From Candidatus Magasanikiibacteriota bacterium (GTDB lineage Bacteria; Patescibacteriota; Patescibacteriia; Magasanikbacterales; UBA922), in contig DMXO01000003.1 of assembly GCA_003482855.1 (NCBI GenBank), forward strand, positions 16,275 to 80,274: 64,000 nucleotides of DNA, given 5' to 3'. Shown here piece by piece: positions 1,046-49,977 of this stretch. The position numbers and the translations under genes were made by a program. The notes beneath the pieces are model-generated. The model was not told the origin of the DNA. It made no database searches and was given only the letters and a program-made list of their open reading frames with translations. The first letter of the stretch is position 1. Every line of letters begins with the position of its first letter.

Positions 1046-1560
1046 ACATAGTATGTCCTAAGCAGGCTTTGATTGTCAACATCATAAAACAAGAAACGCC
1101 TCGTCACTATCTACCATGAACTCATTACTCAGATAACATAACTCATGTATGTTGTGTTATCTGTATCATGTGTCATGATACATACTGACGAGGGGGCAGC
1201 GCGAGCAGACGAACAGAACCACACCCTCCTCGCCGACGACCACATACGATCGCCAAAGCACCGAACGTGGGGCTACCGAGTGCCCCACAGCACTTCGAGC
1301 CGAGCCTCACGGGCCGGCACACCTTGCGCCAGAAGAAGGCGCAGAAGATAGTGCTGTTGGGCGGTCATCTCCCTGGTATTTCGGCGCTTGGTGGGCGGTG
1401 GCGTCGCCATCGGGCTGTTCTGAGTCGTCATAAGACACCTCGAAACGAAAGTGCCCGTCCTCTACCTATGGGACGGGTCGCATGAAAATGAAATATCACT
1501 TCCACACAACCCGTCCCAAAATGCGCTGCCAAATTAAATCTCCTTATATAAAGAACTTCC

Positions 1561-2957: not shown

Positions 2958-3332
2958 CTATTCTTTCAAACGCTGGTTAGTAAAATTTATCAAATTATTA
3001 ATCTCTCTCGGTAGATTATTTAATTCTTTCAAGATAAAAAGGTATTGTTCTTCATTGACCAATTTTCTTACCTTGGATTTTTGATTCCAGTCTAACGCTT
3101 CCTTGACTGAACCAGAAGCATATCGGTAAAATTTTATTTTGTCTTTTTTGGTATATCTTCCAAACCCCTCAGCAATGTTTGCGGAAATAGAATCAATAGC
3201 TCTTACAAATTGAGATCCAACTGTTTGTTTTTCAAACCATCCAAACTTAATTACAATATTCCATACGTAATTGGAAAGGTGAAAAGCTAGCTTATATGAA
3301 CTAACATTTTTTAATTCCAAAAATTTATCCAT
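2958..3332 (-). CDS. four-helix-bundle protein (23S rRNA intervening-sequence-protein family, TIGR02436-like)
   Basis: MDKFLELKNVSSYKLAFHLSNYVW...ANIAEGFGR pattern. Start set at the internal Met (3330-3332), because the upstream 16 codons are encoded by the flanking inverted repeat and overlap the uvrD stop. Confidence 0.7.
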   Translation of the reverse strand: MDKFLELKNVSSYKLAFHLSNYVWNIVIKFGWFEKQTVGSQFVRAIDSISANIAEGFGRYTKKDKIKFYRYASGSVKEALDWNQKSKVRKLVNEEQYLFILKELNNLPREINNLINFTNQRLKE

Positions 3333-3337
3333 ACGAA

Positions 3338-3374
3338 CAATTTGACAATTTAACAGTTTAACAATTTTACAATT
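3338..3374. repeat. right arm of the inverted repeat flanking the four-helix-bundle gene
   Basis: caatttgacaatttaacagtttaacaattttacaatt is the reverse complement of the left arm. It overlaps the last codons of uvrD. Confidence 0.5.
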
Positions 3375-5460
3375 CATCCAGCCCCTTCAAAAAACTTCGG
3401 CGCGGAGTATCCTCATCCAGTGATTCATACGTTACATCGTCATCATCGCTACTTGGATCAAAAAAAGTCGTGTCGTCCTCGTTTGTATTGTAATCTATCA
3501 AATCTCTATTTATCTCATCAATAAAAGGACTGGGGCCCTGCAATAAACTATGCGAATTCGACACAAGTGGATATGTGAGATACAAATATTTTTTTGCACG
3601 GGTAATAGCCACATAAAAAAGTCGTCGTTCTTCTTCTAAATCATCTCCTCGTGACGCTCTATCATTGGGGAATTGCCCAGCAGACACATTCAACACAAAA
3701 ACAGCAGACCACTCAAGCCCTTTTGCCTGATGGACTGTAGAAAGAATAAGCCGTTCTTCATTCCCCCCAGAATTATCATGGGCCTGCTGAGCATGGTAAC
3801 TCTCTTGCAATGTAGCTTCTCCCAGAAATCTATCCAATGCTTCAGATGGATCCTCAAGCGACATGTAACGTTCAGCAAAAACCGCAAGCTGTTCCAAATC
3901 CTGCATACGATCACGATAATCTGGATATTCATTTTCCAAATATTCCTGATACTTTGAGTCAATCACTGCACGGATAAGTTCGCTTGGTATTTTATTATGT
4001 ACCTTATTCAACTTTTCCCATATCTGCAAAAAATCACTCCACCCTATTTGCCCGCGTGCTGGCAACACAGAACCCAAATGGCGCAAATGCTCTGTACGTA
4101 CGGGCGGCTCTAGAGCCGCCCCTCCTGCGACAATCTTCTCATAAATTTTCTGCACCCCCGCTGGCCCAATCCCCACCTGCATATTAAGTACTCTACTCCA
4201 TGCAATAGTGTCTTGGATATTATTATACATACGCAAATATGCCAAAATATCTTTCACATGGGCGCGCTCAAAAAAACGTATACCTCCACGATAATCATAA
4301 GGAATATCTTCCTTTGTAAGTCTCATTTCAAGCTGTTGGGAATGAAATGCCGCACGAAATAATACGGCAATCTCACTCAGAGGGACACCTTCATCGCGCA
4401 ATTCTGAAATTCTATTCAAAATAAATTCTGCCTCTTCTCCTGCATCAGTAAACGCGTGAACCTCTGGCTTGGTAAATCCCTGCAGTACACTTACCAGTTC
4501 CTTCTTATACTGTTTAGTATTATTTGCAATCACTTCATTTGCCACATCCAAAATCTCTGGAGTGGAACGATAATTTGTTTCTAATTTAAATATCTTTGCA
4601 TCTGGGTATACTGTTTCTCCACCAGAGGCGGATCCGCCTCTGGCGGAAAAACTCAAAATATTTTGAATATCTGCCGCACGAAAACTATAAATACTCTGGG
4701 CATCGTCACCAACGACCAAAATATTTTTATGAATTGACGCACACAAATTAATAATACTCGCTTGTATTTTATTGGTATCCTGATATTCATCTACGAGTAC
4801 ATACAAAAATTGTTGCGCGTATTTATTTCTTACGTCTTCTGATTTGAGCAGGAGCAAATGAAAATATACCAGCAAATCATCAAAATCCATGACGTTTGCA
4901 GATTTCTTTCTCTTGGTATATTCTTGGGCAATACTCACGAGTATATCTTCGAAATTAATCCACTGTTCATGTTGCAATTCCAAAACATCATGTATCGTCA
5001 TTTCTGCATTACGCGCATAACTAATAATAGACTGCACAACATTGGGTGAAGGAAATCGACGCTGTGTCCGGTCAATCCCCTCTTGTTTAATACATGACTT
5101 GATCATGTCCCTAGAATCTTCACTGTCAAGTACGGAAAAATTATTTTGAAACCCGAGAACTTGAGCATACTTTTTCAAAATCCTATATCCAATATGGTGG
5201 AAAGTTCCTGACCAAGGCAATGTAATTTCTCCTTGAGTCAACTCTTGCACACGGCGTATCATCTCGTGCGCAGCTTTATTGGTAAACGTCACAAGCAAAA
5301 TATTTTTTGGGTCAACCCCTTTTTCAAGCAAATATGCCACGCGGTAAGTAATCGTACGCGTCTTTCCGCTTCCCGCTCCAGCCAAAACCAAACAAGGGCC
5401 ATCGCCCTCTAATACAACTCTCAGCTGTTCAGAATTCAACTCTTTGTCAAAATTTATCAT
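3367..5460 (-). CDS. uvrD: ATP-dependent DNA helicase, UvrD/PcrA family
   Basis: Walker A motif GAGSGKTRT plus helicase motifs (DEYQDTN, TNYRST). 697 aa. Confidence 0.9.
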   Translation of the reverse strand: MINFDKELNSEQLRVVLEGDGPCLVLAGAGSGKTRTITYRVAYLLEKGVDPKNILLVTFTNKAAHEMIRRVQELTQGEITLPWSGTFHHIGYRILKKYAQVLGFQNNFSVLDSEDSRDMIKSCIKQEGIDRTQRRFPSPNVVQSIISYARNAEMTIHDVLELQHEQWINFEDILVSIAQEYTKRKKSANVMDFDDLLVYFHLLLLKSEDVRNKYAQQFLYVLVDEYQDTNKIQASIINLCASIHKNILVVGDDAQSIYSFRAADIQNILSFSARGGSASGGETVYPDAKIFKLETNYRSTPEILDVANEVIANNTKQYKKELVSVLQGFTKPEVHAFTDAGEEAEFILNRISELRDEGVPLSEIAVLFRAAFHSQQLEMRLTKEDIPYDYRGGIRFFERAHVKDILAYLRMYNNIQDTIAWSRVLNMQVGIGPAGVQKIYEKIVAGGAALEPPVRTEHLRHLGSVLPARGQIGWSDFLQIWEKLNKVHNKIPSELIRAVIDSKYQEYLENEYPDYRDRMQDLEQLAVFAERYMSLEDPSEALDRFLGEATLQESYHAQQAHDNSGGNEERLILSTVHQAKGLEWSAVFVLNVSAGQFPNDRASRGDDLEEERRLFYVAITRAKKYLYLTYPLVSNSHSLLQGPSPFIDEINRDLIDYNTNEDDTTFFDPSSDDDDVTYESLDEDTPRRSFLKGLDEL
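4616..4650. repeat. GC-rich perfect palindrome (ccagaggcggatccgcctctgg + cggaaaa) inserted in frame in uvrD
   Basis: A 22-nt perfect palindrome inside AT-rich coding DNA. Encodes the loop ...SARGGSASGGE.... A near-identical element lies in aroB. Confidence 0.6.
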
Positions 5461-14352: not shown

Positions 14353-14368
14353 CTAACACGAGAAAACC

Positions 14369-14397
14369 TTGACAAAACAGTTTATTTATGATATAAT
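14369..14397 (+). promoter_or_regulatory. sigma70-type promoter with perfect -35 TTGACA, 17-bp spacer and perfect -10 TATAAT
   Basis: ttgaca at 14369-14374 and tataat at 14392-14397. Drives a ~275-nt hairpin-containing leader and the GC-rich ORF at 14673. Confidence 0.55.
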
Positions 14398-14672
14398 TTG
14401 CTGTTTTGTACCTTACAAAAACTGTCTTCGTGTCCACCAATATATGTATATCTTAACGTGTACATATACTGGTTGGCACAAACAGTCAACCTCAAACACT
14501 GTACAACCTGTCTCAGACAGGTTCACATATCACCCAGATCAAACCACCTTTGTGGCGAAGGTGGTGCAGATATCATAAAGAGCGAGAGTTCGAGTGCCTG
14601 ACTGACCCTACTCAACAGTTCCTACACAAACCCAGTCTCCATTGGTGAGACAGCTACGAAAGAGAGGATACG

Positions 14673-17015
14673 ATGAGCGGAACGACGACGCGCAAGATCG
14701 CCGGCATCGCCGGCAAGGACTGGCTCCTCAACGTGACCGGGATGAAGGTGTTCGGCGACTCGCTCCTCACGGAGCGGGTGCGCAAGGAACTCTCCCGGTT
14801 CGCCTGGGTCCTCCTGATCCAGTTGATCGTGGACCTCTGGGTCTGGACCACCCTGTGGTCCTACGCCCTCCCGAGCTCGATGTTCTGGTCCCTGTCGCTC
14901 GGAACGATGTTCGCCCTGTTGATCTTCAAGGTCGACCAGGGCGTCATCACCCACGACACGTCGAGTGACGAGGGACGCCTCCGGCCGATCATCGGCCGAG
15001 CGATCCTCCTGCTCATGATCGCGCTCATCACGGCCCTCGCCGTGGAACTCGGCGTGTTCGCCACGGCCATCGATCGGCGACTCGACCAGCGCGAGAACAT
15101 CGCGGTCACGGAGCTCAAGGAGACCGAGATCGCGAAGATCAACAGCAAGTACCAGAAGCTGATCGACCAGGCGCGTGCCGACGGCACCGAGGCCACGTCC
15201 CACGCCCAGACCACGGGGCAGCAGGACGTTGAGTCCTACAAGTCCCAGCGTGCCACCGAGCGTGCCTCAATCGAGGCCCGGTACGCGGCCGACAAGAAGG
15301 CCATCGAGGACCAGATCGCCGCCGGCGACCAGCGCATCCTCGACGAGACCAAGGGCCGTTTCACCGGTCGCTCGGGCATCGGCCCCATGGTCATCGCGCT
15401 CCAGCAGGAGAAGGAGAAGGCTCTCGGTGAGCTCTCCAAGATCCGCCAGGCCGAGGCCACCGAACTCGGCACCTTCGACACCACTACCGCGGCCTCCATC
15501 GCCTCGCTCGAGAGCAAGCGCGACACCGACACGGCCACGGCCACGACGACCAACAAGGCGAGGGTCGAAGGCCTCCAGATGCAGTGGGAAGACAAGGTGC
15601 AGGAGATCCGCGAGATGAATCGCGACCGATTCGCCACCATCTACGGTGGTGACTGGAAGCAGGATCGCGGCTTCCTCACCAGGTTCCACGCGCTCCAGGA
15701 GATGGCGAGCGAGGACTCGATCATCCAGTGGCTCATCTGGGGCACCCGGCTCCTGATGATGATCATCGGTATGGCCATCCTCATCCTCAAGCTCAGCTCC
15801 AGCCGTGAGTTCGTCAACTACTTCTCCTACCGGGCGCAGATCGCCGCCGGCAACCCCGACGCCACCGCCCACGCGGAAGCAGAAGGGTACAACGACCCCA
15901 CCAACCGCAAGGCACTCGCCTGGCCACCCGAGACCCTCGAGGTCATGGGTGCCCTGCACATGGCGCGACTCAACCTGTGCAAGGCCTGGCGTGCCTGGTG
16001 GCAGCAGGCCGGTGAGACCTGCAAGCAGGACGCAAAGACTGGCCTCTGCCGGTCCCGCGATGACGTCGCCACCCAGCTCCGGCTGGCGTGGAACTTGACC
16101 GTCCAGCCCATGGTCGACGCCCTGGCCACGGCCGAGCGTGAGGTCGAGCTCAACGGCCGCAGCATCCCCCGCTGGGATGAAACGCGCTACCCCGAGCCCG
16201 ACCCCCGCAACATGACCGAACCGTGGGACCTGTCCGACACGCAGCTCCGCGGTCTCGGATGGGAGGACCCCTCCGAGAAGGTCCGTGATGCCCAGGAGGC
16301 CGTGATTCAGCTGCCGGGTCTCTACCGGCAGATCATCGACTTCATGGCGACCATGGACATGGGAACCCGGCGGCAGATCCGCACTGCTCCGGCCACCTCC
16401 CTCCTCGTGCTCGAGGATCGGCGCTTCCAGTTCTACCACACGCAGATGCGTAGGGTCCTGGAGGACATGGAAGATGCCGAGCGCAAGATCGCTTCGACCG
16501 GTCGGCACATGCCCGAGCGTCCCCGCTCCCTGCGGGAGACGGACCAGATCCGGGAGTGCTGGCGGCTCGACCGCCGCACGCTCCGTGACTGGGGCTGGCA
16601 GCAGGACGTGCCCCGCAGCACGCCCCCTGCTCCGGCTCCTGTCCGGACCCCGGCTCCCACGACCACCTCGGCCCCGACCGCCACGCCCCCGGCCCCGCCG
16701 GTGAACACCGTCTCGACGTCGCTGCCCGAGGTCGACATGTCCCTGACCGGTGACGACGCGACCCGCGTCGACATCCGGCCCCCGGCCGAGCTGGCCGACG
16801 AGACGGACGACGAACCCGAATTCGACGTCGGGGCCGATCTCTCGGAAGCCGACACGAACCCGGGGTCGATCCACCCCGACCTCGTCGCCATCCAGACTGA
16901 GGGCGGCAACGGACAGACGCCGCCGGTCAACGGCGATGGCTTCGGCCAGGACGACATGGCGTTCTTCCGCAGCGAGCCGGAGACGGCCACGCCCGGCGAC
17001 AAGCTGGCCAACTAG
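14673..17015 (+). CDS. GC-rich membrane protein (N-terminal TM helices, central coiled coil, third TM, acidic Pro/Thr-rich C-terminal tail); DUF4407-like architecture
   Basis: Codon third positions are almost all G/C in this frame only. AGAGAGGA SD 5 nt upstream. Composition differs sharply from the flanking DNA. Confidence 0.7.
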   Translation: MSGTTTRKIAGIAGKDWLLNVTGMKVFGDSLLTERVRKELSRFAWVLLIQLIVDLWVWTTLWSYALPSSMFWSLSLGTMFALLIFKVDQGVITHDTSSDEGRLRPIIGRAILLLMIALITALAVELGVFATAIDRRLDQRENIAVTELKETEIAKINSKYQKLIDQARADGTEATSHAQTTGQQDVESYKSQRATERASIEARYAADKKAIEDQIAAGDQRILDETKGRFTGRSGIGPMVIALQQEKEKALGELSKIRQAEATELGTFDTTTAASIASLESKRDTDTATATTTNKARVEGLQMQWEDKVQEIREMNRDRFATIYGGDWKQDRGFLTRFHALQEMASEDSIIQWLIWGTRLLMMIIGMAILILKLSSSREFVNYFSYRAQIAAGNPDATAHAEAEGYNDPTNRKALAWPPETLEVMGALHMARLNLCKAWRAWWQQAGETCKQDAKTGLCRSRDDVATQLRLAWNLTVQPMVDALATAEREVELNGRSIPRWDETRYPEPDPRNMTEPWDLSDTQLRGLGWEDPSEKVRDAQEAVIQLPGLYRQIIDFMATMDMGTRRQIRTAPATSLLVLEDRRFQFYHTQMRRVLEDMEDAERKIASTGRHMPERPRSLRETDQIRECWRLDRRTLRDWGWQQDVPRSTPPAPAPVRTPAPTTTSAPTATPPAPPVNTVSTSLPEVDMSLTGDDATRVDIRPPAELADETDDEPEFDVGADLSEADTNPGSIHPDLVAIQTEGGNGQTPPVNGDGFGQDDMAFFRSEPETATPGDKLAN

Positions 17016-17129
17016 ACCAAGCGACGCCACAACGCAAGGTCTATAAAAACGTCCTCTGTGTGACTCACGCAACTACTGCGACACAGATTCAACATACTAG
17101 CCTCCCTACAGGCGTAGTCCCTACTTTCT

Positions 17130-17202
17130 CGTTTGTTTCTCAAACAAACGGTAGGATGACTCGACTAGGAAGGTTGTGCGATTTGCCCCAAACAAATCGC
17201 AC
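17130..17202. other. two adjacent perfect hairpins (cgtttgttt-ctc-aaacaaacg; gtgcgatttg-ccccaaa-caaatcgcac) in a mid-GC spacer
   Basis: 9- and 10-bp perfect stems read directly. Possible tandem terminators or a small structured RNA. Confidence 0.35.
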
Positions 17203-28855: not shown

Positions 28856-29115
28856 ATGTGAATGACTGAATTTTAGGTTATAGGTTATAGGTATTAGGTA
28901 GATTAGATTTTTAAATCAGAATATATAATACTTATCTAAATACCTATAACCTAATACCTTCTAATAATATCATAATCTTGACATTGGTTCCAAAAGATGT
29001 TTATATAAAATACTTTGTTCTTTATATACATCGTTGGTGCTGTACCTATTTATTTATACAAATAGATATATACGGCATCAACGACGCGGGCGATGACCCG
29101 CACAGGAGGGATCTC

Positions 29116-29826
29116 ATGACCAGACAGTTCAGGAAGGGCCGGCCTCGGCGAAAGAAGGGGCAGCAGGCCCCGACGGGGACGAGGCCGAAGGAGTGGCGCA
29201 AGAAGTACACGAACGACGAAGATGACGTCGATGACAACGAGGTGAAGGGGTGGATTGGCTTCGCCCTGCTCGCCTTCGTCATCATCGTGATCGCTGTGTT
29301 CGTGTTGGTCGTCTTCGTCTCGTGCGCCATCGAGGGCGCCGAGTGGCAGGATGGCACCCTGGACACCGACGACCCCCCCACGATCGGAGAGGTCGTCGAG
29401 TCGGACAGCAGTGTCCGCCACTGCACGGGGGGCCTCCCATTCTGCGACTGCGAGACCGACGCCGACTGCCCGGAGGAGTACATCTGCAGCGATCGCTACG
29501 GCTCGCTCTCGTGCGTCGGGCCCGAGTGCACGCCCGACGATGAGGAGGGCATATACAGCGACTGCGACGACGACGAGCGCTGCAGCTTCGACCGCTGCTA
29601 CGAAGGGCGGTGCTTCTACACCCAGTGGACGCACATCCCGGAGTGCTACGGTGAGTCGTCGTGCTACGTGGACGACGACTGCGAAGCGCCGCCCGGCTTC
29701 GAGCCGGGTCCATGCGTCGCGTACGGGTGCTTCCTCCCGAGCGGCGTCTGTGGCGCCGTCGTGCTCGACGGGGAGTCGTGCTCCGCCGGGCTCGGGGTGT
29801 GCGACCCCGATGGCGTGTGCCGCTGA
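29116..29826 (+). CDS. GC-rich single-pass membrane protein with basic N-terminal tail and acidic Cys-rich (CxxDxDC…GxC) extracellular repeats
   Basis: Start set at the ATG preceded by AGGAGGG (29104-29110). The ORF-track start at 28978 lies in AT-rich non-coding DNA. About 30 Cys residues in 4 repeat units. G/C-dominated third positions. Confidence 0.6.
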   Translation: MTRQFRKGRPRRKKGQQAPTGTRPKEWRKKYTNDEDDVDDNEVKGWIGFALLAFVIIVIAVFVLVVFVSCAIEGAEWQDGTLDTDDPPTIGEVVESDSSVRHCTGGLPFCDCETDADCPEEYICSDRYGSLSCVGPECTPDDEEGIYSDCDDDERCSFDRCYEGRCFYTQWTHIPECYGESSCYVDDDCEAPPGFEPGPCVAYGCFLPSGVCGAVVLDGESCSAGLGVCDPDGVCR

Positions 29827-29922
29827 CCATGTCCGGCAAGCATAAAAAACTCAAGGAGACGCGATCGTGGGGGCGATCGCATGGAGTTCAGTGTCCCGAT
29901 GTATATCGGGATAGTGAAATAC

Positions 29923-29957
29923 AAAAATCCGCTGAAAAAGCGGATTTTTGTATTTTG
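29923..29957. terminator. bidirectional rho-independent terminator (aaaaatccgc-tgaaaaa-gcggattttt)
   Basis: 10-bp stem flanked by A- and T-tracts. Confidence 0.6.
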
Positions 29958-29963
29958 CATTTA

Positions 29964-30131
29964 CTATTCTGCCTTTTCATCATCTTCATCCACCATGTGT
30001 TCAGGTGCGTCGCATGAACACTCTTTAAGTGGTTGTCCATGCATAGAACAACTTTCTGCTTGGCATGTACCCGGATGTGCTGAGACGCCACCACATTCCC
30101 CAGTACATACATAATGTGTAGTGCCTTCCAT
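29964..30131 (-). CDS. 55-aa Cys-rich putative metal-binding protein (heavy-metal-binding-domain-like Y.C…HPG.C…C.M..L pattern)
   Basis: Manual translation gives MEGTTHYVCTGECGGVSAHPGTCQAESCSMHGQPLKECSCDAPEHMVDEDDEKAE, with a double stop. Starts 9 nt after the HD-domain gene stop. Not in the ORF track. Confidence 0.45.
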   Translation of the reverse strand: MEGTTHYVCTGECGGVSAHPGTCQAESCSMHGQPLKECSCDAPEHMVDEDDEKAE

Positions 30132-30140
30132 ATAATTATA

Positions 30141-30719
30141 TTAAGAATTAACATTGAAAACTTTTTTTGCTCGTTCAAATGTACGATTGAGCTCAGTCAA
30201 AATCGGACTATCCAATCGCTCTTCCAAAATCATAAGTGCTTGCTTATAAAACCACAAACGTTTATCAGCCGGAGCATTGAATCGTTTCCACATCTCATCT
30301 CCATACGTCTCATAATCATAGAGCATGGATGATAAATTGTGGAGTTTGTCTGCAGCACTTACGAGAAGCGTCTTCTCTGTCATAGTTTTCATGAGAGACA
30401 AATACCGCTCTTTGCGTTCGAGCCATGGTATATCTCCCTCGTCACGCTTTTTTACCTCGGTCATAGACTCGACCATGGTACGCACAGTATTCCCAAAATC
30501 TTTTTCTACCTCATCACAAGTATAATCAGTCTCTTCCACGGTATCATGCAAAATACCTGCCACGATTGAATCTTCGTCATCCGTATAATCCATAAGTATG
30601 AGCGCGACAGCAAACGGATGTGTCACAAACGGCGTCAATCCATCCCCTTTGCGCAGTTGCCCACGATGTAATAATGTTGCTTTTCGAATCGCCTGTTCTA
30701 TGGTATGAGAATATCGCAT
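30141..30719 (-). CDS. HD-domain (RelA/SpoT-like) phosphohydrolase
   Basis: HPFAVALIL...AGILHDTVEETDYT HD motif. Confidence 0.7.
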   Translation of the reverse strand: MRYSHTIEQAIRKATLLHRGQLRKGDGLTPFVTHPFAVALILMDYTDDEDSIVAGILHDTVEETDYTCDEVEKDFGNTVRTMVESMTEVKKRDEGDIPWLERKERYLSLMKTMTEKTLLVSAADKLHNLSSMLYDYETYGDEMWKRFNAPADKRLWFYKQALMILEERLDSPILTELNRTFERAKKVFNVNS

Positions 30720-41347: not shown

Positions 41348-41423
41348 GTCTTGAACGGATTCAAGACCACCCTCGTTATGACTATAATTTTTTATAATAA
41401 TAACGAGTTGTCGGGTGGTCTTG
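41348..41423. repeat. strong nested hairpins at the asparaginase 3' boundary (tcttgaa-cgga-ttcaaga; caagaccaccc…gggtggtcttg)
   Basis: A 7-bp perfect stem and an 11-bp perfect inverted repeat enclosing a further inner repeat. Confidence 0.45.
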
Positions 41424-41455
41424 TGAAAAGAACGCCCTCCAACTCTATCTGCATA

Positions 41456-42523
41456 TCAGTCCTCCTCTTCCTCCTCATCCTCGAAGCCGATCAGCAGTTC
41501 GCCGACGATGTTCGTGGAGAGGAACATCTGGATCCGATCCGGGTGCTTGGGGTGCATGGCGATGGCCTGGCGGAACTTGATGTCCCCCATAGCCGGCGTG
41601 AGGCTCTCCAGCGAGAGCGCCCCGGCCGCCTTGGCCTTCGCACCGAGCTCGTACCGACTCAGGACGACGCGCCCGTCCTCGAACGGGGAGAGGATGCCCA
41701 CGTGGATGCCCGCGTCGGTCGCGGCCTTGATCGCGTCGATCCACGAGTAGTTGGCGTCCCCCATGTCCCACGGCCGATCCGGGATGTTGCCCGCGCCCTT
41801 GGCCTCAAGGATCACGCCCTTGATGCGACCAGCCTTGACCATATCCATCAGGACGTAGGGCGGGGTGTCAGCGGACACCATGAGCGACACTACGTGCTGC
41901 TCAAACTTGGTGTCGAGGCGGAGGCCCTGGACCGCGGCGACGGGGTCCTTGCGATGGACGCCGTCCATGATCATGATCTTCGGGAAGGCTTTGGCCACAG
42001 GGTGACGTCCGGGCGTGTGGAACGCCGCGAAGTCGGCCTCGTTGCGCTTGCGGACACGCGAGCCGTCGAGCACGTCGCCGAGGCAGACGCTGTAGACGCC
42101 CACGATGCCGTTCCGCAGGAAGGACTTGCCGACGCGCATGGTGTTCGCCACCTGCATGGCCACATCCGAGCCCGACTCCTCCTTGGTCATCTGCGCGCCG
42201 ATCACGAAGACCGGCTTCTGCAGCGACAGCTTGAAGAGCATGGCCAGGAACGCACAGGACTCCGCCAGGGAATCCGTGCCATGCAGGATGATGAACATCT
42301 CGTGGTCGTCGTAGGCCGCCGCGATCATCTGGCCCATCACGACCCGGTCGTTGTGCATGACGTTGGTCGAGTCCTGCCGTTGCGGGAAGTCCTCGAGCGT
42401 CAGCTCGATGCCCTTGGGGAGTACGATCCCCTCAAGCAGCTCGGCCGCGGACTTCGCGGGATGCAACGGATCCCCGACCATCCCCAGAGTTCCTCCCGTG
42501 TTAAGAACGTATGCTTTCTTCAT
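41456..42523 (-). CDS. ansA: L-asparaginase (type I / GatD-like asparaginase family), GC-rich
   Basis: TGGTLGM and HGTDSL signatures. Start set at the ATG preceded by GGAAGGAA; the ORF-track start is a TTG. G/C-dominated third positions. Confidence 0.8.
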   Translation of the reverse strand: MKKAYVLNTGGTLGMVGDPLHPAKSAAELLEGIVLPKGIELTLEDFPQRQDSTNVMHNDRVVMGQMIAAAYDDHEMFIILHGTDSLAESCAFLAMLFKLSLQKPVFVIGAQMTKEESGSDVAMQVANTMRVGKSFLRNGIVGVYSVCLGDVLDGSRVRKRNEADFAAFHTPGRHPVAKAFPKIMIMDGVHRKDPVAAVQGLRLDTKFEQHVVSLMVSADTPPYVLMDMVKAGRIKGVILEAKGAGNIPDRPWDMGDANYSWIDAIKAATDAGIHVGILSPFEDGRVVLSRYELGAKAKAAGALSLESLTPAMGDIKFRQAIAMHPKHPDRIQMFLSTNIVGELLIGFEDEEEEED

Positions 42524-42605
42524 CTTCGGTTCCTTCCACAATCAAAGGCTCTTCACCTCCACACTCCCACACTCGCGGGTGTGCGCTCGGTGTTATCGAC
42601 CCTCC

Positions 42606-42755: not shown

Positions 42756-43373
42756 CTAACCACTAAACATAATTTTCCGTATAAGTTCGCTAAGATTATG
42801 GTTGTGGATATTGTTGAAACGAAATTCCATTTCTTTGAAGTACAACAACACATATTTTTTATTGATCCCATTATATTTTTTTAATTTGGTTTTCACATAT
42901 GTCCAAAACATTTTTGTTTCATCAACTAAAATCTTATTCGTCAATTTCGTTTTGTACGGTTTGGTGTTATAATAGGTATGTCCATTCAAAATTAAAGCAT
43001 CATATATTTTAAAACTTTGTGTATCTCGCACATCAAATGGCACAATATGAGTACGCATGATCTGTTTTAATTTCAATGCTTCTATATCGTTTACTGCACC
43101 TGTAAAAATAGTATTATCGAGCTTGCAAATACCTATTATTGATACTAGTGATTCTATATTTTTTGTTAGATACACATACGGAAATTTCTTATCACACTCA
43201 CAGGCAATAGCAGTCCGAATGAAAAAATAAATACGATCTACGGTGTGACGATTTATTTTTATTATCTGACTCGCTTTGGACGCAGGAACTTCCAATACAA
43301 ACAAATCAATTATTTTTTCAATTTGTCTATTAGAAAGTTTGCTGTTCTTTATTAATCGATGTTTCATACACAC
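42756..43373 (-). CDS. IS1595-family(-like) transposase
   Basis: N-terminal LSNRQIEKIIDLFVLEVPASKASQIIKINRHTVDRIYFFIR resembles the IS1595/ISXO2-type HTH region, with a DDE-like ...VDET... segment. Adjacent to the GC-rich island. Confidence 0.45.
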   Translation of the reverse strand: MCMKHRLIKNSKLSNRQIEKIIDLFVLEVPASKASQIIKINRHTVDRIYFFIRTAIACECDKKFPYVYLTKNIESLVSIIGICKLDNTIFTGAVNDIEALKLKQIMRTHIVPFDVRDTQSFKIYDALILNGHTYYNTKPYKTKLTNKILVDETKMFWTYVKTKLKKYNGINKKYVLLYFKEMEFRFNNIHNHNLSELIRKIMFSG

Positions 43374-46749: not shown

Positions 46750-49700
46750 TTACTTGGTAAATTTCATATACGTAATAGAATAACCAGGGAACGTATAACT
46801 AAACTGCTGTGAAGCTGGGATAGCCTTAACTTGGTAATCAATATCATTGTGTGTCTCCGTAAGCGATGAAGCATCAAGCTGATATACTTCCCCTTGTGCT
46901 TGTGGCGCAAATCCATTTAACTGGAGTGTGTAATCATGATTTTCTGTGTCACGATTCAATACAGCAACATACAAGGTATTTCCATCTGCAGACAAACTAC
47001 TTACTGCGGTAACCCTTGGTGCTTGTTTAGTAGTTACTGCGTCATGACCCATAAATTTTTCATAACTTACAGGAAGCATTTTCCCATCCCACGCAAAGTA
47101 TCGTGCAAATGCCTGGAATGTATCCCCATTCAAATTTTGTTTAGGAACCCAGTTATAATCTCCTACCAAACCATTCACAAATCCTTCACCTGGTGTAGCA
47201 CTATTCCAGAAGAATAATGACCCGCCGTGAATTCCCTGCTCCAACATATACGCAAGTTCTGACCATGCATACGCCGCATCGAGGAATTTGTCAGTCTGTT
47301 TGTTTTTGAAGTCATTCAAAATACTATTGAACTCATCTACAAAGTACGTCACTTGTTGCCCGGGCAAATATCTTTCTGCCAACTGTTTGTTTGAAGTATA
47401 CCGTGTCTGACCTTCCCAATACGGACCTGCCATGGTTGAAAGCGGATATTGGTTAACACGATCTTGATTGTAGTAATCATAATAATGGTGAATCGCAAGG
47501 CCTGAAACCAAACTGCCCTTGCCACGTGAAGTAATTTGTTGTAATACTCTTTCAAAATTAAACTGTGAAGATGACTGTGCTGGTAGAATACATTTCAAAT
47601 CAGCTTTAACTTGATGGATAGAGTCACAAAGATCAACAAATCTATTTGCAAATCCTACTTCATTACCCGTGTACTCTTGATAATATGGCTCATTACCTAA
47701 TTCTACATAATGAATGTCATAGGGAGCCAAACGACCACGACTCGCACGTAGGTTTGCATAGTTGTATTGTGCGACGTCCAAAGGCCACCCCGCTTGCTTT
47801 AGTTCTTCAACTTTTTGATTGTAATCTGCGTCTGGTGTTCCAACCATATACTCAATCATGGCAGTAAGACCTTCTACACTATACAAATCTTTGAAAAACC
47901 CAGTCCATGTGTTTGTCTGTGACCCGTACGCTGTTTCCTTGGGGCTTGGAAGCTGCAAAAGTAGTTCAGCATTCATTTTCTCTGCCATCTGGCCATAATC
48001 ATCAAGTGTCATGAGATTACTATCAAAACTCCATGCATAAATGACATCTGAATTGAATAAAGAGGTGGAATTTTGATTCACTGGATTTATTGAATTCAAA
48101 CCTGCGTACGTAGTACGAAGCTGCAACTCGTCAATTTTAAATTTATACGAATCCTGGCGCTGCGATTCTGCATTGAGTTCATACGTAGCAATGGTACCAA
48201 ATTTAATCCCCGTTTTTTTACCTTCGGATGAGATATCCAAATTATCCAATGTAAGTTCTGCCATGAGTTGCCCATCAACCCAGACTTTTGATATATTGTC
48301 AGTCAATATTTCAATGCTATACCATCTATCAAAAACAACAGGCTGAGGTAAAACAAATGTTTTATTATATGCTGTACCAATCTGAATCTCAAACGTACGA
48401 TCAGGTCTTAGCATCATGCGGAATTGAGATGAATCTGCAATTACCGCTTTATTATTTACACTGTACGGAATATCAGATGAAAGTTTAAAATCAAAACGAG
48501 TATACCTATTATGATCAGGAAATTGCATTCCTGTATTTTGTCCTTGTACATACAGTGTATTGACTTGGGTCGTGGACCCAGATTTCTTTGTATAACTGAT
48601 TGAATGTCGATTAAATTCATCAGCATACGTTGGTGAATGATCAAACCATTCTGCCTCATAATAATTTTGTGATTGTTCTCCACTGGGATACTGAACATAT
48701 AAATCTTTTACTGGGCGTTGGATGCCCCATGTATAGGTATTCACTGGCTGTGCATTGTCGTACTGTGGGATCATGGGATTATAAAGTCCATCTGTCATGC
48801 GGCCAAAACCTTGTCCATACATCCAGTAATTTTTGTGAACTCCGGTATCCCACATGTGCATGCGCCACAAGGGACGATTGATATTATTCCCTGATGGCTG
48901 TGCATTGCCACCAAGTTCAGTAAATACATTATAATTATAATCCCACACGCGATCATTCATTGAGTTGCCACCCAAAACTCCACGGTCAACATAGGGGACT
49001 TTGGTCCCTGTTGCATCAATGACCATTGCATTTGCCGGAGTTGGTGTGGGAGTGGGAGTGGGAGTTGGTGTCGGCGTAGGAGAAGTCGTTGTTCGTGTCA
49101 TCCGTAAATTAGTAATCTTTACATCCATGGTTGTAGAACCAGGTACTAGATATTGTATGAAAAAATGAGAAATCTGTGCAGGGTTGAAACTTGAAGCCGA
49201 TAGATTACTTAAAGGTATGGAAATCGCTTGTGGATTTCCATTTAGCATACCTGCAGGAAGACGAATAACTGCCGAGGTATTTAACCAACCGCTAAAAAGG
49301 TACAGATTAACAGTAATCCCATCAATATTAACTTGTTGGGCGTTTAGCCGATCTCGTGTTGCCGTACTGAGATCACTCTCTAAAGAAAATTCTAATGTGT
49401 CATACCCAGCAATACTAAAGGTAGGATCAAAATCATACTGCATACGTTCATCACCCCATGCATTTACAAAATGCATACCTGTTGCATCTGGTGTCGGTTG
49501 CGTACCACTCAGATTAATGCGTGAAGGTGTAGGAAAATTCATTGTCTCGACAACCGGCGTTGGAGCTGGGGTAGGAGTTGGCGCTGGTGCCGGAGTCGGA
49601 CTTGGTGTTGGAGCTGGTTCTGGTGTGGGAGTAGGAGCCGGTGCTGGTGTAGGCTCAGGAGCAGGAGTGGGGGTAGGTGAAGGTGCAGGATCTTGAGGTA

Positions 49701-49977
49701 CACTACAACCTGCAATTTTTTTGACTTGCAATCGTCTATTTGTCAAACAAGTAAACTGATTCGTGTAAGCTCCATTTGAAATGCAACCATTTTGCATCGA
49801 AAGTTGTTTGCCAAAAATAACAAGGGACACACCATTTGATGTTTGTGTACATTGGTTGACACTAAAATTGTATGTCTGAACTACATCCCCATCTGCAGCG
49901 CGTGCAAAACTAGGTATTGCAATTGCCACAAATACCAAAACAAATACTTGAATTAAAAAACGTGATAGCTTCTTCAT
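46750..49977 (-). CDS. large secreted glycoside-hydrolase-like protein (clan GH-A TIM-barrel with YVELGNEP motif) with Pro/Thr-rich linkers
   Basis: Signal peptide, PTPTPAPEPTP… and (TP)n linkers, ELGNEP catalytic-acid motif. 1075 aa. Confidence 0.5.
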   Translation of the reverse strand: MKKLSRFLIQVFVLVFVAIAIPSFARAADGDVVQTYNFSVNQCTQTSNGVSLVIFGKQLSMQNGCISNGAYTNQFTCLTNRRLQVKKIAGCSVPQDPAPSPTPTPAPEPTPAPAPTPTPEPAPTPSPTPAPAPTPTPAPTPVVETMNFPTPSRINLSGTQPTPDATGMHFVNAWGDERMQYDFDPTFSIAGYDTLEFSLESDLSTATRDRLNAQQVNIDGITVNLYLFSGWLNTSAVIRLPAGMLNGNPQAISIPLSNLSASSFNPAQISHFFIQYLVPGSTTMDVKITNLRMTRTTTSPTPTPTPTPTPTPTPANAMVIDATGTKVPYVDRGVLGGNSMNDRVWDYNYNVFTELGGNAQPSGNNINRPLWRMHMWDTGVHKNYWMYGQGFGRMTDGLYNPMIPQYDNAQPVNTYTWGIQRPVKDLYVQYPSGEQSQNYYEAEWFDHSPTYADEFNRHSISYTKKSGSTTQVNTLYVQGQNTGMQFPDHNRYTRFDFKLSSDIPYSVNNKAVIADSSQFRMMLRPDRTFEIQIGTAYNKTFVLPQPVVFDRWYSIEILTDNISKVWVDGQLMAELTLDNLDISSEGKKTGIKFGTIATYELNAESQRQDSYKFKIDELQLRTTYAGLNSINPVNQNSTSLFNSDVIYAWSFDSNLMTLDDYGQMAEKMNAELLLQLPSPKETAYGSQTNTWTGFFKDLYSVEGLTAMIEYMVGTPDADYNQKVEELKQAGWPLDVAQYNYANLRASRGRLAPYDIHYVELGNEPYYQEYTGNEVGFANRFVDLCDSIHQVKADLKCILPAQSSSQFNFERVLQQITSRGKGSLVSGLAIHHYYDYYNQDRVNQYPLSTMAGPYWEGQTRYTSNKQLAERYLPGQQVTYFVDEFNSILNDFKNKQTDKFLDAAYAWSELAYMLEQGIHGGSLFFWNSATPGEGFVNGLVGDYNWVPKQNLNGDTFQAFARYFAWDGKMLPVSYEKFMGHDAVTTKQAPRVTAVSSLSADGNTLYVAVLNRDTENHDYTLQLNGFAPQAQGEVYQLDASSLTETHNDIDYQVKAIPASQQFSYTFPGYSITYMKFTK

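Follow-up and report, generated by a model that had tools for sequence, protein, structure and literature searches.

Results

Composition and coding status of the Cys-rich gene

The DNA analyzed here is a 64,000-nt stretch (hereafter the window) of contig DMXO01000003.1 in assembly GCA_003482855.1, a metagenome-assembled genome of a groundwater Candidatus Magasanikbacteria bacterium belonging to the Candidate Phyla Radiation (CPR). Its open reading frame (ORF) 29116..29826 encodes a cysteine-rich (Cys-rich) protein with a predicted membrane anchor, and this gene converges on that of a 55-aa Cys/His micro-protein, which follows an HD-domain gene (Table 1). Both ORFs had been proposed in a preliminary description of the sequence.

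From about 29070 to 29900, the GC content reached 60–75% with sharp edges, while that of the flanks was 23–40%. The ORF itself has a GC content of 66.5%, as compared to a window background of about 38%. GC contents at the first, second and third codon positions (GC1, GC2 and GC3) were 0.60, 0.49 and 0.90 in the called frame, and the other two frames lacked this pattern. Neighboring genes had GC3 values of 0.28–0.39, as opposed to 0.903. Since the GC3 bias was present in the called frame only, the ORF passed the test for an artefact of high GC, and the 236-aa gene was borne out. Its amino acid composition is likewise of the GC-rich type, with few K, N and I residues.

The translation signal and the codon usage also set the gene apart from its surroundings. 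A perfect Shine-Dalgarno (SD) sequence, AGGAGG, is located 6 nt before the ATG, as had been described. Among 48 native-like ORFs of the window (at least 150 aa), none carried a 5-mer SD core and five carried a 4-mer, whereas the GC-rich genes of the window do carry SD-like sequences. Relative synonymous codon usage of the three larger GC-rich genes was mutually correlated (r = 0.81–0.90) and was negatively correlated with that of native genes (r = −0.43 to −0.65). Thus, 29116..29826 is a genuine protein-coding gene of a foreign, high-GC compositional type. The earlier statement that it is unlike anything else in the window did not hold, as the window contains at least four GC-rich islets when the Cys-rich gene is included, i.e., at least three others with this codon usage.

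In public records (P0001 and P0015; 282 aa), the gene is called from the TTG at 28978, which is the TTG of a TTGACA −35-like hexamer. This start adds 46 spurious AT-coded residues; one caller uses the ATG at 29116, which is favored here. On one contig, JGI called an antisense ORF of 194 aa over the Cys-rich gene.

Occurrence of the locus in independent assemblies

Twelve contigs from Logan, JGI and ENA, derived from several samples and with differing naming styles, were 100% identical to the window. Four of them span the entire unit, another one extends over the left junction and all of the GC-rich segment, and all contigs that reach the islet contain it. The members of the 90% cluster of the Cys-rich protein were identical, i.e., population variation was not seen among them. 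Seven of the 12 contigs with the micro-protein gene end inside the islet (29437–29879), four of these within 29437–29482. These contig ends could be due to GC-dependent loss of coverage or to allele heterogeneity in the ectodomain-coding part.

A single homologue at the same slot in a divergent species

Neither a word-indexed search of 5.8 billion clusters nor an exhaustive phmmer scan of 1.84 billion representative proteins returned anything other than the Cys-rich protein itself. Pfam, NCBIfam (E up to 1) and PHROGs yielded no family; the Pfam noise comprised DUF4307 (E = 0.058), DUF6480 (E = 0.075) and DUF7107 (E = 2.7). A homologue was located by synteny, in a second Magasanikbacteria genome (440-kb contig) that was reached via the micro-protein homologue P0007. 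This sole homologue, WCW16_05615 in NCBI (P0019), has 284 aa, a GC content of 67.7% and a GC3 of 0.874. Its gene lies between the micro-protein gene and a GSDH-81aa-methyltransferase-UPF0102 block, on the opposite strand.

The two proteins share 37% identity over 207 aligned positions and 36% identity over the first 80 aa (E = 5e-11). Common to both are the basic tail, the helix and the invariant motif C-AIEGAEWQDG, and the Cys framework is partly alignable (HCT.GL, DC..D.DC and CP.E..ICS). Genome scans re-found just this one relative or nothing, as did the viral scan and, among the matches listed, the metagenome scan. A profile built from the two sequences recruited no further member, only weak tandem-repeat look-alikes. 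Thus, the family is new, comprises two members, is lineage-restricted and is built on Cys/Asp-rich modules. With two members only, analyses of covariation and selection are thin. Judging from synteny and alignment, the Cys-rich gene appears as a resident transcription unit at the same slot in a divergent species and not as a fresh insertion.

A native-type transcription unit around a foreign-type coding region

Along the unit, an AT-rich promoter block of native style is followed by a structured 5' untranslated region (UTR), a strong SD, the coding sequence (CDS), two 3' hairpins and a terminator. Its promoter-like block contains TTGACA (28978–28983), a TG-extended −10-like TTATAT/TATATA (about 29001–29007) and TTGTTCTTT. 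Local alignment of this block between window and relative gave a score of 32, while shuffled sequences scored 19.5 ± 2.5 and none of 500 reached 32. The block would act as the promoter of the Cys-rich gene, although a simple promoter scan did not flag it. In both species, a long bipartite hairpin is followed by a short GC hairpin and then by SD and AUG, with GGAGG as the SD of the relative. The 5' UTRs differ in sequence but share this architecture, with folding z-scores of −5.70 (window) and −4.95 (relative). The apparent composition boundary is not a simple insertion junction, since the 5' hairpin forms pairs between its two sides.

Downstream of the CDS, a GC hairpin, a second hairpin and a perfect bidirectional terminator follow each other in both species, with folding z-scores of −6.65 and −10.74. 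The second hairpin (29887–29918) keeps its outer stem (UUCAGUGU...AUAgUGAA), and its inner stem covaries. It overlaps the conserved block GGAGTTCAGTGT (29883–29894), which belongs to the cross-species run GGAGTTCAGTGT ... TGAAATA ... AAAAATCC. The alignment score of this 3' block was 34, as compared to 14.7 ± 2.2 for shuffled sequences (0 of 500 reached 34). The 17-bp perfect hairpin described earlier as a bidirectional terminator between the two genes was recovered; it is common to the convergent Cys-rich and micro-protein genes and has an equivalent perfect hairpin in the relative. Such a native-type structured transcription unit around a foreign-type coding region is new here.

The inverted repeats noted upstream were confirmed as arms of 21 nt (28875–28895 and 28939–28959; 90% complementary) made of TAGGTTA heptamers. 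The heptamer array (period 7; 2.7–3.9 copies) forms, together with its inverted copy, an 85-nt imperfect palindrome in the region 28874–28993. On the minus strand, a promoter-like site (28993..28964) directly precedes the repeat and overlaps the plus-strand promoter block back to back. The repeat is probably the 5' leader or operator of the divergent hydrolase/GSDH operon; it showed no conservation in the relative, whose locus is without the hydrolase gene.

A 10-nt inverted repeat around the islet, ATATACATCG (29024 and 29897), was one of 31 such pairs and was taken as chance. Permissive Rfam searches of both loci returned sub-threshold hairpin or attenuator look-alikes only. Integrases, transposases and direct repeats were not found at the edges of the islet, where six neighboring genes were scanned.

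Table 1. Features of the locus and further GC-rich islets of the window (positions in the 64,000-nt window;., no strand).
Feature	Position	Strand	Remarks
Inverted repeat, AT-rich, TAGGTTA heptamers	28874..28959	.	divergent intergenic region
AT-rich promoter-like block of Cys-rich gene	28977..29023	+	kept across species
Structured 5' UTR	29031..29101	+	bipartite long hairpin 29031-29083, then short GC hairpin 29086-29101
SD sequence AGGAGG, perfect	29104..29109	+	6-nt spacer to ATG
Cys-rich protein CDS, 236 aa	29116..29826	+	GC3 0.903
Part of this CDS: basic tail and acidic patch	29116-29247
Part of this CDS: predicted transmembrane/signal-anchor helix	~29248-29322
Part of this CDS: C-AIEGAEWQDG juxtamembrane motif	29323-29355
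Part of this CDS: acidic ectodomain	29356-29823		20 Cys
3' UTR hairpins, two	29861..29918	+	GC hairpin 29861-29880; second hairpin 29887-29918
Bidirectional intrinsic terminator	29917..29955	.	perfect 17-bp stem, 5-nt loop, A/T runs at sides
Cys/His micro-protein CDS, 55 aa	29964..30131	-	9 nt downstream of HD-domain gene
HD-domain (HD_4) gene	30141..30719	-	PF13328, E = 4e-17; directly upstream of micro-protein gene
GC-rich islet, DUF4407 membrane protein, 780 aa	~14450-17200, ORF 14673..17015	+	65-81% GC, GC3 0.90
GC-rich islet, type I asparaginase-like protein (PF00710, PF17763)	~41400-42600, ORF 41456..42541	-	GC3 0.89
Mini-islet, 52-aa ORF (MTTQNSPMATPPPTKRRNTREMTAQQHYLLRLLLAQGVPAREARLEVLWGTR)	~1185-1500, ORF 1273..1431	-	~60% GC

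Predicted topology and modules of the Cys-rich protein

The protein starts with a strongly basic stretch of 31 residues and then has an acidic patch. A single hydrophobic helix was found, with a hydropathy peak at residues 50–68 and an AlphaFold2 (AF2) helix at residues 40–74, in accordance with the basic cytosolic tail and one transmembrane helix sketched before. Because a positive-inside tail precedes a single helix, the ectodomain is predicted to lie outside the membrane: the signal-anchor helix would insert N-in/C-out and expose the acidic Cys-rich part. Alternatively, the protein may be processed as a lipoprotein at the invariant Cys70. The sequences FVSC (window) and LHGC (relative) fit the lipobox [LVI][ASTVI][GAS]C only in part, the n-region comprises about 45 aa and the helix about 23 aa; a gene for Lgt is present in the relative.

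From W77 on, the 160-aa ectodomain contains 20 Cys, 37 D/E and 6 K/R. The whole protein contains 21 Cys rather than the roughly 30 first reported. Of the four CxxDxDC...GxC units proposed, four acidic C-x5-C cores were retained (CETDADC, CDDDERC, CYVDDDC and CDPDGVC), just two of which strictly follow CxxDxDC. Traces of duplication at the DNA level, 114 and 102–111 nt apart, correspond to a unit period of about 34–38 codons, and these faint duplications point to three to four degenerate units; Tandem Repeats Finder detected no tandem array within the CDS.

The unit CCGNGEDDDADGLADCDDPDC of the relative matches the C-rich domain of teneurin-4 (7PLP; E = 0.0019), and both have the same C-x13-C-x4-C spacing. 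The 7PLP module has 38 residues, binds three Ca2+ via eight acidic residues, contains three disulfides among its six Cys and is akin to thrombospondin type 3 and LDL-A modules (PMC9058538). The units of the window protein align onto those of the relative, with the DxDxDG loop being lost in unit 1 and a spacing of C-x11-C-x5-C in unit 2. The ectodomain would probably bind Ca2+ and form disulfides, as far as can be judged from aligned motifs. Like teneurin C-rich, thrombospondin type 3 and LDL-receptor class A modules, its units are short, extracellular by prediction and dense in Asp/Glu and Cys. Unlike teneurin, the window protein does not belong to a large adhesion receptor; it comes from a bacterium, has just 236 aa and has its predicted membrane anchor at the N-terminus. 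Cys/Asp-rich Ca2+ modules as such are already known.

The Cys-rich repeat proteins of high-GC bacteria, for which a resemblance had been proposed, are similar at the motif level only, mainly via the copy of the relative, while no Pfam or NCBIfam repeat family matched. The look-alikes P0020–P0022 from metagenomic bacteria (E = 5e-3 to 0.75) carry tandem C.DG.DND.DG..DC.D.DC repeats behind lipoboxes. They share with the relative the acidic Cys repeat motif, and have a lipobox-type N-terminus and an extracytoplasmic location; by eye, their amino acid make-up is of the GC-rich type (many A, G, P, D and R). They differ from the Cys-rich protein in lacking its anchor and the CAIEGAEWQDG motif and in having many more repeats. 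A metallothionein preprint that mentions Magasanikbacteria was considered as a motif-level aside only.

A conserved Cys/His micro-protein

The micro-protein ORF is co-oriented with the HD-domain gene, as had been described, and the two genes are probably co-transcribed. Its pattern is H6, Y7, C9, C13, PGTCQA, C23, C28, H31, PL, C38, C40 and H45. Nine homologues with local BLASTP identities of 64–78% were found in Roizman-, Magasanik- and Parcubacteria, so that the small ORF is conserved in related genomes and its reality was confirmed. H6, Y7, C9, C13, G21-T-C23-Q-A, C28, P34-L35, C38, C40 and H45 are invariant and H31 is nearly so, i.e., six Cys and two His are invariant and one His is nearly invariant. 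Comparison with the copy of the relative (pN 0.25, pS 0.84) indicated purifying selection. An AF2 model from the homologue alignment had predicted local distance difference test (pLDDT) values of 72–88 over residues 1–40 and showed small beta hairpins. Most likely, the Cys/His set would form two small metal-binding knuckles (Zn or Fe).

Seven genomic contexts were looked at, namely HD, PRTase, AhpC/Grx, cupredoxin/MFS, VKOR, Ni-SOD and a PAS sensor. Gene orders in other CPR genomes include AhpC-micro-glutaredoxin, cupredoxin-micro, micro-VKOR and micro-NiSOD-peptidase. The neighborhood of peroxiredoxin/glutaredoxin, cupredoxin, VKOR and Ni-SOD points to a redox or metal role. Since these loci are without a GC-rich neighbor, the adjacency to the Cys-rich gene is read as a Magasanikbacteria-specific convergent arrangement around a shared terminator and not as a joint function. 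By these conserved positions and contexts, the micro-protein represents an apparently independent, conserved CPR family. The copy of the relative is annotated in NCBI (WCW16_05620), and the exact sequence of the window copy is found just in JGI, Logan and ENA gene sets.

Other GC-rich islets of the window

The DUF4407 gene lies between an RF2-like and a GroEL-like ORF, these neighbors being named from their sequences. A consensus TTGACA-17-TATAAT promoter at about 14368–14400 is followed by a leader of about 270 nt and intermediate GC. In NCBI, the protein is HAT03424.1, a hypothetical protein. The asparaginase-like gene is adjoined by an AT-rich IS1595/ISXO2-like transposase remnant (42756..43373, minus strand). 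In a tblastn search of the asparaginase against plasmids, all matches were below 30% identity and gave no clue to a donor. The boundary motif GGAGTTCAGTGT is absent from the other islets, so that a common element end is not present.

A further GC peak at 49450–49750 (about 57%) was not counted as an islet, as it corresponds to a Pro/Thr/Ala/Gly-rich low-complexity linker of a native gene on the minus strand. Outside the window, a CPR contig of SRR22387951 with 38% GC carries an insert of 64% GC at 3251–3700, which suggests that short GC-rich inserts recur in CPR genomes. The public call there, 139 aa on the minus strand, reads antisense; the plus frame 3295..3579 looks truncated and has an HVTL motif of the 2H-phosphoesterase kind.

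Persistence of the GC-rich composition

The orthologues that flank the unit share 57–72% protein identity, and their synonymous sites are saturated (pS 0.67–0.84; dS at least 1.6). A neutral HKY model was run with the native third-position frequencies as equilibrium, the islet composition as start and a minimum per-lineage distance of 0.8. It predicted a GC3 of at most 0.49, while 0.90 was observed in the window and 0.87 in the relative, and GC3 was even along the gene in both species. Thus, simple vertical inheritance with neutral drift was excluded. The persistence at a GC3 of about 0.9 in both lineages is unexplained; it reflects either active maintenance or recent independent acquisition or replacement. 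What is new is that amelioration is lacking in two divergent species and that no donor has come to light.

Discussion

Our overall reading, to which we assign a probability of roughly 0.6, is that a long-resident unit encodes a surface-displayed, membrane-anchored, acidic and disulfide-knotted Cys-rich protein of foreign compositional type and Ca2+-binding type, next to an independent micro-protein of metal-binding type. The ectodomain would consist of degenerate units of the teneurin C-rich or thrombospondin type 3 kind, knotted by disulfides on the cell surface. With its anchor conserved and its ectodomain diverging fast, the protein would fit a role in cell-surface contact or adhesion in an episymbiotic bacterium.

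Several points weigh against this reading. Long residence conflicts with the neutral expectation, given a flanking dS of at least 1.6 and a predicted GC3 of at most 0.49. The foreign origin is inferred from composition, codon usage and the SD, and no GC-rich donor or homologue was found. The window protein itself matched neither 7PLP at E up to 10 nor, significantly, any family or solved structure, so that its likeness to Ca2+ modules is drawn from alignment to a single relative; the AF2 model of its ectodomain was unusable (mean pLDDT 47.9). The micro-protein matched no metal-binding family by sequence or by fold in searches of PDB sequences and Foldseek, of Pfam and NCBIfam (E up to 10) and of PHROGs, nor in an alignment of its family profile to a consensus of the heavy-metal-binding domain (HMBD).

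How could the composition have been kept? Tentatively, we consider that a resident CPR gene has been held at a GC3 of about 0.9 in a genome of about 38% GC across speciation, either by a locus-specific force or by reloading of the slot. The locus-specific force may be selection on codon or nucleic acid composition, or biased repair or conversion. In the case of slot reloading, the conserved promoter, the UTRs, the anchor-coding 5' end and the 3' hairpin would repeatedly be given GC-rich alleles of surface proteins from high-GC partners.

A possible, if doubtful, alternative to long residence is parallel or recurrent acquisition, with the slot either acting as a hot spot or having its resident copy repeatedly replaced through homologous recombination. 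Either lineage would then have its own allele, received from related, unsampled high-GC donors (possibly hosts) too recently for amelioration. This would account for GC3 values of 0.87–0.90 in both lineages despite synonymously saturated flanks, and it is consistent with the GC-rich type of amino acids, the foreign-type SD, the islets of the same codon usage in this genome (one of them beside the IS1595-like remnant) and the GC-rich gene fragment in another CPR contig. Moreover, groundwater Patescibacteria undergo frequent horizontal gene transfer (HGT) and have documented genomic islands (PMC12455944). As in a recently acquired islet, composition, codon usage and translation signals are atypical. 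However, no empty site was seen, as every contig that reaches the site carries the gene and the relative has a homologue in the slot. Neither a donor lineage nor a close homologue emerged, the searches yielding just two Magasanikbacteria proteins and none from any GC-rich organism among the 1.84 billion representatives or the 5.8 billion clusters. The promoter block, the UTR architecture, the N-terminal anchor and the 3' block are conserved to a degree that roughly matches the divergence of the genome around them, the 5' hairpin pairing across the composition boundary leaves no simple junction, and the islet is without flanking direct repeats and, among the six neighboring genes scanned, without integrase or transposase.

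Genes and islands of foreign composition are already known from Patescibacteria and other reduced genomes, and GC-rich alien genes within an AT-rich genome have been described for Lawsonia (PMC2671203). The Cys-rich gene resembles these atypical islets in being a single gene of sharply different GC content and codon usage among native genes. It differs from them in being syntenic in two divergent species, in having kept native-type regulatory flanks and in showing no amelioration and no known donor.

With regard to the micro-protein, the preliminary description had seen a likeness to small heavy-metal-binding domains. That the protein is a free-standing member of HMBD (Pfam PF19335) with a role in heavy-metal efflux or sensing is improbable. 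The HMBD consensus reads Y-x-C-P-M-H-P ... P-G-x-C-P-x-C-G-M-x-L, and the spacing Y-x-C ... PG-x-C ... C ... L is similar; in addition, one homologue comes after a cupredoxin gene. However, the resemblance in spacing was by eye only. The window protein gave no hit in a hidden Markov model (HMM) search at E up to 0.1, none of 10 family members matched at E up to 10, NCBIfam gave no match, and hhalign, run with the family alignment against an HMBD consensus, returned a probability of 3.8% over 6 aligned columns. Among the seven contexts, mainly thiol/redox and superoxide enzymes were found and no efflux pumps or P-type ATPases. The micro-protein shares with HMBD and with rubredoxin/zinc-ribbon knuckles its very small size, its predicted beta hairpins and paired Cys knuckles (CxxxCGG and CxxxxC) after a Tyr and a PG turn. 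It differs from HMBD and rubredoxin in its ligand set of 6 Cys and 3 His, in being free-standing and not fused to transporters, and in having no HMM, PDB-sequence or Foldseek match.

That a diversity-generating retroelement targets the ectodomain for hypervariation, or that the ectodomain is an integron-type cassette, is very unlikely. The fast divergence of the ectodomain on a conserved anchor, the 3'-edge hairpin with its conserved outer and variable inner stem, and the clustering of contig breaks at 29437–29482 could be read in this way. However, blastn of the unit against the window (64 kb) and 20 kb of the relative found no second copy, i.e., no template repeat, no genome-wide search for a reverse transcriptase being part of this, and the sampled copies are all identical. 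Moreover, the hairpin arms showed by eye no attC cores (GTTRRRY/RYYYAAC), and no integrase or recombinase was present among the six neighboring genes scanned.

An assembly chimera or contamination, i.e., a high-GC fragment misjoined into a CPR contig, could be suspected from the extreme contrast in composition with sharp edges and from the seven short contigs that stop within the islet, but it is already effectively refuted by the same junctions in several samples and three public assembly collections, by the makeup of the islet, a complete single gene that has its own SD and is enclosed by a conserved promoter and terminator, and by the same arrangement in a second species. Equally negligible is the chance that the long ORF arose from high GC with few stops and is no gene, for although overlapping ORFs of 100–190 aa exist in other frames or on the opposite strand, among them the antisense JGI call, the codon position pattern is confined to the called frame, the SD is perfect, and helix, motif and Cys framework are kept in the relative.

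CPR bacteria, or Patescibacteria, make up a large share of bacterial diversity, and most of them are thought to live attached to other cells. To our knowledge, the proteins of their surface contacts and the partners involved are mostly unknown. A lineage-restricted, fast-evolving, membrane-anchored surface protein of the Ca2+/disulfide type, as proposed here, would be a concrete candidate for CPR cell contact. The micro-protein, in turn, represents a conserved unannotated Cys/His family linked by its contexts to oxidative-stress and metal enzymes in CPR bacteria. The locus also illustrates that gene calling misses genes of less than 60 aa and that public records give the larger gene a wrong start.

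Finally, the combination of foreign codon usage, synteny and regulatory flanks in two species, no decay to host composition and no donor among 1.8 billion representative proteins poses a sharp and testable question as to the way in which amelioration operates, or fails to, in reduced genomes. The several GC-rich islets of the same style may point to the donor or host lineage. If slot reloading were true, the host range of an uncultured episymbiont could be read from the islets.

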